NCBI GenBank assembly: GCA_963776275.1
Contig: CAVZMI010000023.1
Span: forward strand, 320,001-384,000
Direction: 5' to 3'
DNA: 64,000 bases
Source of the DNA: Ignavibacteriota bacterium
GTDB lineage: Bacteria; Bacteroidota; Ignavibacteria; UBA10030; CAVZMI01
The notes beneath the pieces were generated by a model that worked only from the letters and a program-made list of their open reading frames with translations, did not search any database and had not been told where the DNA came from. Shown one piece after another: positions 23,653 through 26,338 of this stretch. Numbering within the stretch: the stretch's first letter is position 1; every line of letters begins with the position of its first letter. The position numbers and the translations under genes were made by a program.

Positions 23653-25008
23653 TTAAATATCCTTACCCTGGACGATAGGAATAAATCGAAACGATCCATC
23701 CGTACCAACATCGACAGAGATCGTATTCCCTTCGGCAATTTCTCCTGCAAGAATTTTTTCAGATAATTTATTCACGACATGTTTTTGAATTATCCGTTTA
23801 AGCGGACGGGCACCAAACTGCAGATCGTATCCCGCCTTTGCAAGCCACGTCTTTGCCGAATCGGTGAAATTGAGTATGATATTCTTTGCTTTCACCAATA
23901 CCTGTAGATTACGGAGCTGCAAATCAACAATTTGAACTATATCGTCGCGTGTAAGAGTTTTAAACATGATGATTTCATCGACACGATTAAGGAACTCCGG
24001 ACGGATCGTCTGTTTGAGCAGGTCGAATAGTTTAATCCTGACAGCCTCCATGACCTCATTGCGGTTTACATCGGTCATGTTCTGCGTCCACTCCATGATG
24101 ATATTCGATCCGAGGTTCGAGGTCATGATGATGATCGTATTCCGGAAATTAACAGTCCGTCCTTTGCTGTCGGTCAGCCGGCCTTCATCCAACACCTGCA
24201 GAAGCACATTGAACACCTCCGGATGCGCCTTTTCGATTTCATCAAGCAGCACAACGGAATAAGGTTTCCGCCGGACTGACTCGGTAAGCTGTCCGCCTTC
24301 CTCGTAACCGACATAACCGGGCGGCGCACCGATGAGACGTGATACGGAGAATTTTTCCATATACTCGCTCATGTCAATGCGCACCATTGCATTTTCATCG
24401 TTGAAGAGCGACTCGGCAAGTGCACGGGCAAGTTCGGTCTTTCCGACTCCGGTCGAGCCAAGAAAAATAAATGATCCGATCGGTCTTCGCTCATCCTGCA
24501 ATCCCGCTCGCGCACGACGCACGGCATCGCTCACTGCCTGGACTGCCTCGACCTGATCGACCAACCGTTCGTGTATCCGTTCTTCAAGATGCAGTAATTT
24601 CGACCGCTCGCTTTCGAGCATGCGGCTGACCGGGATACCGGTCCATTTTGCCACGATCTCTGCAACGTCCTCGGCATCGACTTCTTCCTTCAACATTTTC
24701 CGATTTTTCTGAACTACTGCGAGCTCTTGTGTTGCGGCTTTCAGTCTTTTTTCGAGGTTAGCAATTACTCCATAGCGCAGTTCGGCGACTTTTGCAAGAT
24801 CGCCTTCGCGTTCTTTCTTTTCAGCCTCGTTTCGCGCTTTCTCGATCTCGGATTTCATTGTCCGTATAGATTGTATGAGATTCTTCTCATTCTGCCAGTG
24901 TGTTTTCAGCTGAGTGCGGACTTCGTTGAGATCTGCAATTTCTTTTTCAATCTCATAGAGTCGCTTTTTTGTCGTTTCCTGCATTTTCTCTTGTGTAAAT
25001 TCAGTCAT
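23653..25008 (-). CDS. clpB: ClpB C-terminal half (rest of M-domain plus NBD2)
   Basis: [21 protein letters not shown] Walker [26 protein letters not shown]; own GAGGA RBS and ATG. Confidence 0.9.
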
Positions 25009-25024
25009 TGTTCCTCACATCCTT

Positions 25025-26338
25025 TTATGCCTGTAATTCGCGTTTCAACGCTTCACGTTCGATTTCCAATTGTTTGATTTTTCTCTCAATTTCATCGAGT
25101 TCTTCCGGCATTGAATCGATTTCAATCCGCAGTTTTGAGGCGGCTTCATCGATCAGGTCTATCGCCTTATCGGGAAGGAATCGATCCGAGATGTACCGAT
25201 GACTCAGTTGTGCTGCTGCGACAATCGCACCGTCGGTAATACGCACGCCGTGGTGGATTTCATATCGTTCTTTTAATCCTCGCAGAATCGAAACCGTATC
25301 CTCGACTGTCGGCTCATCGACAAGAACCGGCTGGAACCGGCGTTCCAGAGCCGCATCTTTCTCAACATGCTTCCGATATTCATCGATCGTTGTGGCGCCT
25401 ATAGCCCGGAGGTCACCGCGTGCCAGTGCGGGTTTTAGCATATTCGCGGCATCGACAGCTCCCTGTGCGGCTCCGGCACCTACGAGCGTATGAAGTTCAT
25501 CAATGAATAGAATAATTTCGCCGTTGGATTGAATTACTTCGTTTAACACGGCTTTCAATCGCTCTTCAAATTGTCCACGAAAGCTCGTCCCTGCGACAAG
25601 CGTTCCCATATCGAGCGCAACAATCCGCTTGGTTCGTAAAGACTCCGGCACATCGCCGTTAACAATTCTCTGAGCAATTCCTTCGGCGATTGCAGTTTTT
25701 CCGACGCCGGGTTCACCGATTAGAACAGGGTTATTTTTCGTACGCCGTGAAAGAACCTGAAGGACTCTTCGGATTTCATCATCGCGTCCGATAACCGGGT
25801 CGAGTTTACCGCGCCGGGCAAGATCGTTCAGATCGCGTCCGAATTTTTGCAATGCCTGATATTTATCTTCAGCATTTTGATCTGTCACGCGCTGGCTGCC
25901 GCGGATTTCTTTAAGGACTTTATATACATCCTCTTTTTTGACTCCCTGATCAATCAGGAGTTTTGCTCCTTTATTTTGCTTTTCTTCAATAAGTCCAAGG
26001 AGCAGATGTTCGGTACTGACATATTCGTCTTTAAGCTGGTTCGCTTCCTTGAGTGCCGTTTCGAATACCTGCCCGAGTGATTGTGAGACAAACTGGTTCC
26101 CAAGCTCGGCACCCGATATTTTGGGGAGTTTCTCAATCGCTTCATTGATCTTGATTTTGATATAATTCACATTGGCTCCGACCTTCTGTAGAATCGGAAC
26201 AGTAATCCCGGCCGCATCCTGGATAAGCGCAGCAAGGAGATGTTCCGGCTCTATAGACTGACTGCCATAACTGGTTGCAATCTCCTGAGCATTTTGAACA
26301 GCTTCCTGCGCTTTAATTGTAAATTTATTAAAATTCAT
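25025..26338 (-). CDS. clpB: ClpB N-terminal half (N-domain, NBD1, first M-domain helix)
   Basis: [40 protein letters not shown]; ends [15 protein letters not shown]. Confidence 0.9.

Follow-up and report, generated by a model that had tools for sequence, protein, structure and literature searches.

ClpB/Hsp104 is a single-chain, two-ring machine, and its middle domain (M-domain) serves as the switch for activation by Hsp70. At the tip of M-domain motif 1, head-to-tail contacts between M-domains hold ClpB in a repressed state until DnaK arrives. The canonical ClpBs of Escherichia coli (4d2q, 6oax), Thermus thermophilus (1qvr), and Mycobacterium tuberculosis (6dju) have the same domain order, namely the N-domain, the first nucleotide-binding domain (NBD1), the M-domain, and the second nucleotide-binding domain (NBD2), and each is one chain. 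Herein, a clpB gene found in a 64,000-nt stretch of DNA from an Ignavibacteriota bacterium (GenBank assembly GCA_963776275.1, contig CAVZMI010000023.1, positions 320,001 to 384,000; called the window below) is analyzed. The domain order is the same in this ClpB, but it is encoded as two chains, with the cut placed after the equivalent of E. coli E432.

A ClpB engineered by Beinker and co-workers (Beinker et al. 2005) was reportedly cut in vitro so that NBD1 with the M-domain was separated from NBD2. It shares with the present locus the idea that the two nucleotide-binding modules work without a covalent link. The engineered cut is reported to lie outside the M-domain and is not natural, whereas the cut found here is natural and inside the M-domain. 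No description of a natural split was found in the literature on ClpB, subscription papers and supplementary files being outside the search. Split ClpB is widespread in databases and seems to be undescribed in the searchable literature. The present locus is a clean natural experiment on the M-domain and not a new kind of system. What it adds is an adjacent, probably operon-encoded state, a probable separate origin, and a link to a lengthened loop.

In place of the single polypeptide of about 850-900 aa that characterizes the ClpB/Hsp104 family, the list of open reading frames (ORFs) gives two ORFs on the minus strand, of 437 aa (N-half) and 451 aa (C-half), which is a departure from the family. 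These two ORFs probably form a two-gene operon encoding a two-chain ClpB disaggregase. The junction reads GAA TTA CAG GCA TAA, with the TAA at 25027..25025, followed by the 16-nt spacer aaggatgtgaggaaca and by ATG ACT GAA starting at 25008. The frame offset between the two halves is +1 (26338-25008 = 1330 = 3n+1). The C-half frame contains a TGA 9 nt 5' of its ATG, and this TGA sits past the TAA of the N-half; therefore, no single insertion or deletion (indel) joins both frames, as an earlier note on this DNA had stated. Compared with canonical ClpB, both halves carry the extra terminal residues which that note had also pointed out, 'LQA' (3 residues) on the N-half and about 10 residues on the C-half.

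The spacer contains the Shine-Dalgarno-like (SD-like) motifs AAGGA and GAGGA. SD-like 5-mers were counted at -20..-5 in 16 of the 42 long ORFs of the window, the ORF starts being approximated as the first ATG, versus 4.9% of random positions. Because of this enrichment, it is reasonable to regard the two motifs as a credible ribosome-binding site (RBS). Other explanations of the junction were also considered. The 27-nt junction string is present as a single copy in the genome with up to 3 mismatches allowed, and this genome-wide uniqueness rules out a repeated cassette. A split intein or trans-splicing was dropped, since the extra termini are merely 3 and about 10 residues and no intein domain was found by Pfam.

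The split was verified by comparison with other genomes. The source genome is designated G000 (the window lies on its contig C23), G001 belongs to the same genus, and G002 belongs to another genus of the same family, designated f1. The same stop-spacer-start split is found in all three genomes of this family, covering two genera. In G001, the spacer is identical to aaggatgtgaggaaca. In G002, the N-half ends with 'REIYA*', the spacer is 22 nt with AGGAG, and the C-half restarts with 'MTELVKES...'; the amino acid identity is 88% for the N-half and 79% for the C-half. Positions 24300-25700 are covered by an independent Logan contig from a peat metagenome run (X1; 2111 nt, depth 16.6), which differs by 63 substitutions, a divergence of 4.5%, and shows no gap. 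None of the differences listed falls within 25005-25030 (36 more are unlisted). The other metagenome runs (X2-X4) gave short or distant pieces that do not cover 24911-25004, and X1 alone bridges the junction. The junction sequence, the ORF list, the three family genomes, and the independent contig all agree with the initial proposal of two cistrons, and a continuous ORF was found in none of G001, G002, and the metagenome contig.

The dN/dS between G000 and G001 was 0.030 for the N-half and 0.055 for the C-half (dS 0.20 and 0.25). In the comparison with G002, synonymous sites are saturated (pS 0.82), with a pN of 0.079 for the N-half and 0.138 for the C-half. Both clpB halves are under purifying selection, and the split is stable across two genera with saturated synonymous sites. 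These data confirm that the two-gene clpB is real, conserved, and selected.

The protein domains were assigned via Pfam and by reading the translations. The N-half contains Clp_N (PF02861, E 3.9e-26, in two stretches), AAA, and AAA_lid_9, and the C-half contains AAA_2 (1e-68) and ClpB_D2-small (3.5e-27). Walker A (GEPGVGKT) and Walker B (FIDELH) are read in the N-half, and the Walker motifs and the pore loop GYVGY of NBD2 are intact in the C-half. N-half residues 406-437 and C-half residues 1 to about 105 align to the M-domains of fused ClpBs. Residues R78-Y79-G80 of the C-half, within M-domain motif 2, are invariant across 13 aligned rows; the Tyr of motif 2 used for DnaK docking is presumably the equivalent of E. 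coli ClpB Y503. Among solved structures, ClpB chains match the N-half best (6dju, 3.3e-157; 4d2q and 1qvr; to 2.3e-151), versus 2.8e-134 for the best ClpC. By these matches, the two-ORF protein is closer to ClpB than to ClpA or ClpC.

The cut had been placed at the turn between helices of the M-domain, and this location was borne out at the residue level. In the alignment, the counterparts of N-half residue 434 are E432 in E. coli ClpB, residue 423 in the T. thermophilus protein, and residue 433 in that of M. tuberculosis, and the cut comes just after. A variation was also observed in the NBD1 pore loop (N-half residues 251-257, around position 25580), where Phe is present in place of the Tyr of E. 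coli 'AKYRGEFEE' and M. tuberculosis 'SKYRGEFEE'. The same Phe is present in the related fused and split sequences read, including the Chlorobium N-half 'AKFRGEFEE'.

A complex of N-half residues 155-437 with the whole C-half was modeled. The interface score ipSAE was 0.70, versus 0.00 for the best of 3 controls, and the ipSAE mark is one reached by 116 of 157 solved complexes and by 2 of 215 mismatched pairs. At least 93% of the contacts recur between runs, with a partner pLDDT of 78 or higher. The modeled interface joins N-half residues 357-435 with C-half residues 10-56 and 105-130. Within it, N-half residues 406-435 pair with C-half residues 10-56 in a heptad-like manner, giving a helical hairpin, the motif 1 coiled coil, that is cut at its tip. 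C-half residues 105-130 meet the NBD1 lid (residues 357-403) with the lowest expected errors.

We infer co-transcription, coupled translation, assembly, and activity of the two halves. The N-half would give the N-domain, helix 1 of the M-domain, and the module of the first ATPase ring. From the C-half would come the remaining M-domain with its DnaK-docking motif 2, a short stretch packing back on the NBD1 lid, and the module of the second ATPase ring. Through the RBS in the 16-nt spacer, translation of the C-half would be coupled to that of the N-half on one mRNA. The two chains, whose reassembly is suggested by the model, would rejoin via the antiparallel coiled coil of helix 1 and helix 2 and via the lid contact, and six N/C pairs would form the usual double ring working with DnaK.

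The distribution of split ClpB was then determined within the order, the class, and the Chlorobia. In the source order, a ClpB orthologue was found in 34 of the 38 non-f1 genomes, and the frames are 861-924 aa in 33 of them and cut by the contig end in one. The class search covered 301 genomes, with a match in 274, and the class figures are taken from the 150 matches listed. Among these, 50 open frames have a length of 437-546 aa (G000 included, one cut by the contig end) and 100 have a length of 774-975 aa. In the class search and two small follow-ups, the half-length state was found under the family labels f1, f11, f12, f14, f15, f23, f24, f26, and f29; the other family labels with an orthologue among the matches listed are fused.

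In the Chlorobia, the class of the Chlorobium metagenome-assembled genome (MAG), 80 of the 81 sampled genomes have a match, and all 80 frames are 441-530 aa with none fused. The earlier note had described the ClpB of Chlorobaculum tepidum as two half-length proteins; at the level of the group this is right, the frame being half-length in 80 of 80 matching Chlorobia genomes. Complete genomes of cultured green sulfur bacteria, such as Chlorobaculum parvum NCIB 8327, Prosthecochloris aestuarii DSM 271, Pelodictyon luteolum, and Chlorobium chlorochromatii CaD3, contain N-halves of 439-449 aa under generic names, those of the first three being 439-442 aa long. A length-restricted protein search returned at least 120 proteins, 75 of them 436-441 aa long. 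Of 14 half-length proteins read, 12 end 1-6 residues after '...EREAL.RE'; the source labels are Kapabacteria, Kapaibacterium, Chlorobi, and Ignavibacteriae. Stand-alone C-half homologues of 440-453 aa are also present in the protein listing.

The C-half was then located in genomes with a split N-half. It is a separate frame of 444-477 aa in all five genomes of split families where it was sought, on another contig in three, 271 kb away in one, and 6 kb away in one. It is also separate in all three named MAGs (Chlorobium, Kapaibacterium, and Ignavibacteriae). The Chlorobium, Kapaibacterium, and Ignavibacterium album loci came from a contig scan that returned mostly distant fused ClpBs. Downstream sequence of 1.5 kb or more was available for 28 split N-half loci. 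An NBD2 signature is found there in 3, all of them f1, and in 0 of the 25 non-family loci within 1.5-2.5 kb. A metagenome scan with the C-half gave no further f1-like loci among the 80 matches listed, the best being 63% identical.

The unlinked split ClpBs of the Chlorobia, of Kapabacteria-labelled genomes, and of other members of the Ignavibacteria class have the same cut, at the tip of M-domain motif 1, as judged by its place between '...EREAL.RE' and '..RL.EIEKE'. Their N-halves are 436-449 aa. Their C-halves are about 440-447 aa and begin with M and 4-13 residues before 'T/x-K/R-x-R-L-x-E-I-[ED]'. Their halves stand at separate loci (on another contig or 6-271 kb apart), whereas the f1 halves are 16 nt apart in the source genome. 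In addition, f1 ClpB groups with the fused ClpBs of its own order, unlike the unlinked split lineages.

Three individual cases were also observed. In a locus of family f12 (L181; G166:C38:7900-17200), the two halves are on the same strand, 6 kb apart, with five opposite-strand genes between them, for an unknown protein, a methyltransferase, an epimerase, a glycosyltransferase, and a PAS histidine kinase; this arrangement may be a stage between the adjacent and the fully unlinked state. A canonical-loop relative with 84% identity (P0007/P0190) has a 442-aa protein ending with 'KREKDERFKSAA' and a 413-aa C-part, which looks like a frameshift at the same loop and not a clean split. For 'Candidatus Kryptonium thompsonii' (P0166, P0168, P0171), an 'AAA family ATPase' of 450 aa that resembles the C-half is listed together with partial ClpB entries, and the split of ClpB may extend to Kryptonia.

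Phylogenetic analysis was performed to place the f1 sequences, via quick IQ-TREE searches with the LG+G4 model and the junction columns removed. Six loci (L108, L113, L149, L165, L167, and L076) whose junction was missed by the motif filter and one without a C-part (L077) were left out, and the loop state of L172 and L034 was assigned by hand. In the C-part tree (66 rows), f1 falls among the members of its own order (SH-aLRT 99 for that clade), with f9 as its neighbor (94), and the five unlinked C-halves are in another clade (97). In the joined N+C tree (66 rows), the order clade has a support of 98 with f1 in a polytomy inside it. The N-part tree (89 rows) also puts f1 in this order-level group, at a lower support of 84. 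The approximately unbiased (AU) test was applied to the constraint that all split forms make one clade. The ΔlnL was 67.2 (p-AU 0.0246) for the C-part and 85.9 (p-AU 0.00455) for the joined data, and one clade is rejected by both.

The loop at the cut exists in two kinds among the fused relatives. The canonical short loop reads 'KRE-KDEASKGRL-EEIEKEL', as in bacteria at large. The second kind is lengthened by 9 to 12 residues, as in 'KRELTADYTHYADSS...', 'KREITAEYADEADKK...', and 'KRELIDYKSETQ...', and is found in f2, f7, parts of f4 and f9, f16, f20, f21, and f27. The long loop, carried by many fused ClpBs of the class (L007, L010, L011, L013, L014, L105, L114, L128, L129, L130, and L135), often contains 'L-[TS]-[AS]-[DEN]-Y'. 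Canonical and long-loop forms are sisters within f4 (SH-aLRT 100 in the C-part tree and 99 in the joined tree) and within f9 (89 in the C-part tree; the joined tree gives no resolution). The motif-1 tip loop is either an indel hot spot or exchanged between lineages.

In the DNA alignment, f1 resembles the long-loop form, and 'MTEFTQE' aligns on 'TAEYADE' without a gap. The fused relatives read 'RE-L/I-T-A-[DE]-Y-x-D-E' at the junction. Compared with the long-loop genes, f1 has 25 additional nucleotides, made up of two codons, the stop, and the 16-nt spacer; in G002 the added block measures 31 nt. Both 25 and 31 are 3n+1, consistent with the +1 frame offset. The simplest path suggested by the alignment is from a short loop to a long loop, followed by the insertion of a stop with an RBS. 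Fission, and not re-fusion, would be the direction of change. In the f1 ancestor, 25 nt (31 nt in the other genus) would have been inserted into the loop at the tip of M-domain motif 1. The inserted block would have consisted of two codons, a stop, and the RBS-bearing spacer, placed just before the codon that is now the ATG. Relatives of the order would already have had a loop longer by 9-12 residues before the insertion. This f1 fission was probably separate from the older fissions that are now unlinked in the Chlorobia and in other families of the class. The adjacent arrangement had been described at the outset as a fission intermediate. Such a role agrees with adjacency being confined to f1 (3 of 28 split loci). 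The f1 split is, however, probably an event of its own rather than the precursor of the Chlorobia split, and the arrangement is stable across two genera.

A number of points speak against a two-chain disaggregase of separate origin and have to be set beside the evidence above. The dnaK gene at 26582..28509 (-) is broken into ORFs of 361 aa and 274 aa by two 1-nt insertions near 27425 and 27350, 74 nt apart. G001 and G002 lack these insertions and have an intact dnaK, and G000 has no other dnaK-like match. Both breaks are in short base runs and are probably an assembly error, the other option being a strain-specific pseudogene. A ClpC-like paralogue of G000 (48% identical to the N-half; contig C27:73420-74713, L002 1492..3999) is also interrupted: the last residues of a 390-aa ORF are out of frame, and another ORF follows 135 nt on. 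The G001 orthologue is one open frame of 853 aa. This second broken gene is a further hint of indel errors. With such frameshifts in the neighboring dnaK and in the clpC-like gene, the assembly alone would be untrustworthy, and it is the other genomes and the independent contig that carry the case for the split. Structures of intact ClpB have been solved; thus, what the model pass shows is likeness to ClpB, and it may reflect memory of the solved single-chain proteins rather than binding. The search of sequencing runs listed 4 DNA runs holding the stretch and 0 RNA runs. For the origin of the split, all trees are quick LG+G4 searches without a mixture model, and the AU test of the N-part (28 split rows) does not reject one clade (ΔlnL 34.8, p-AU 0.115). 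Since one clade is rejected by the C-part and joined data but not by the N-part, a separate f1 fission is favored and unproven. Because f1 stands in a polytomy within the order clade, an ancestral adjacent split with later re-fusion is a possible course, although a less parsimonious one. The homology of the short junction residues also rests on few positions.

Alternative explanations of the two ORFs have to be weighed against these data. An assembly error or a recent pseudogene is suggested by the dnaK and clpC-like genes, both broken in G000 and intact in G001. This explanation is hardly credible for clpB, however, because the same structure is present in three genomes of two genera and in the independent metagenome contig, the junction differs from an intact gene by more than one indel, and the dN/dS is 0.03-0.055. 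A single polypeptide made by programmed recoding, with ribosomal bypass or frameshifting over the stop and spacer, would fit the short distance of 16-22 nt and the +1 offset between the halves. It is very improbable, since each of the two frames runs into a stop, with the C-half TGA downstream of the TAA, and the spacer varies in length and sequence between genera with the SD and ATG kept. The junction sequence shows no matched pair of take-off and landing codons, folding of the junction RNA as a thermometer or bypass element was no better than that of shuffles (z -0.09 and -0.49), and the unlinked halves elsewhere show that separate chains are viable. The halves might also have ceased to cooperate, acting as separate single-ring ATPases or with one of them being lost. 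This would be in line with the unlinked and presumably separately regulated halves of other lineages and with the faster evolution of the C-half (79% versus 88% identity to G002). Such a loss of cooperation is quite improbable: purifying selection on both halves is strong, both halves are found wherever both were sought (3/3 family genomes and 8/8 others), the cut M-domain hairpin and the split NBD1 lid expose surfaces on each half, and the predicted complex places the halves as in intact ClpB.

A further alternative concerns the direction of the change. The adjacent split could be an old state, perhaps shared with the Chlorobia, that was kept in f1 and scattered in other lineages, with the long-loop fused genes being re-fusions. 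All split forms are cut at one point, and their tails 'RELQA*', 'RELTA*', and 'RELNAA*' resemble the fused 'RELTADY...'; in one fused relative, with 'REFTADYMDEE', an M occurs within the protein at the would-be start codon. One clade is also not rejected by the N-part AU test, and the place of f1 inside its order is not settled by the trees. An old adjacent state is nevertheless unlikely. One clade is rejected by the C-part and joined data, and fused genes with the canonical short loop 'KDEASK.RL' make up the deeper branches and the outgroups. The canonical and long-loop sisters in f4 and f9 would in addition require several exact re-fusions and reversions to the universal loop.

It is conceivable, though doubtful, that ClpB was cut independently at least three times, in the Chlorobia, in several families of the Ignavibacteria class, and in f1, always in the same motif-1-tip loop, and that the f1 locus keeps the first step. 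If so, the recurrence would indicate that the cut is tolerated as the coiled coil re-zips. The cut might even be favored, and the free ends at the motif-1 tip could alter the head-to-tail M-domain contacts that repress ClpB until DnaK.

A natural and conserved cut implies that the covalent link between the rings and the motif-1 hairpin are dispensable in living cells. The f1 ClpB is a natural split-protein pair. Its fused relatives are 80-85% identical, and the adjacent version is the easiest one to clone and compare for the effects of M-domain topology. The short loop, the long loop, the adjacent halves, the halves 6 kb apart, and the unlinked halves make up a gene-fission series. The split also affects genome annotation. 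Database names of split halves include 'AAA ATPase central domain protein', 'Clp protease N-terminal domain-containing protein', and 'chaperone protein ClpB', and pipelines also use 'AAA family ATPase'. Under such generic names, ClpB can be scored as missing or truncated in split lineages.

Table 1 Coordinates of the two-cistron clpB locus and its flanking features within the window.
Feature	Position	Strand	Description
clpB N-half	25025..26338	-	437 aa + TAA; Clp_N, NBD1, NBD1 lid, M-domain helix 1
Intercistronic spacer aaggatgtgaggaaca	25009..25024	-	16 nt; SD-like AAGGA (25024..25020) and GAGGA (25016..25012); includes TGA 25017..25015
clpB C-half	23653..25008	-	451 aa + stop; rest of M-domain, segment returning to NBD1 lid, NBD2, D2-small
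dnaK-clpB-N intergenic region	26339..26581	-	243 nt; GC-rich hairpin about 26560..26535 (by eye), then AT-rich leader
Hairpin 3' of clpB-C	23599..23626		11 bp, 7 GC pairs; precedes convergent gene 22889..23563 (+)

The flanking regions were also analyzed. The dnaK gene is directly upstream of the N-half, ending at 26582. A consensus scan gave a weak -35/-10 match at 26394..26367 (-), and the hairpin proximal to dnaK was not flagged by the scan; the intergenic region is presumably clpB's own promoter region. The terminator scan found no terminator-like site between the two clpB halves. The hairpin 3' of the C-half was flagged as terminator-like on the plus strand only, and it is likely the end of the two-gene transcript.

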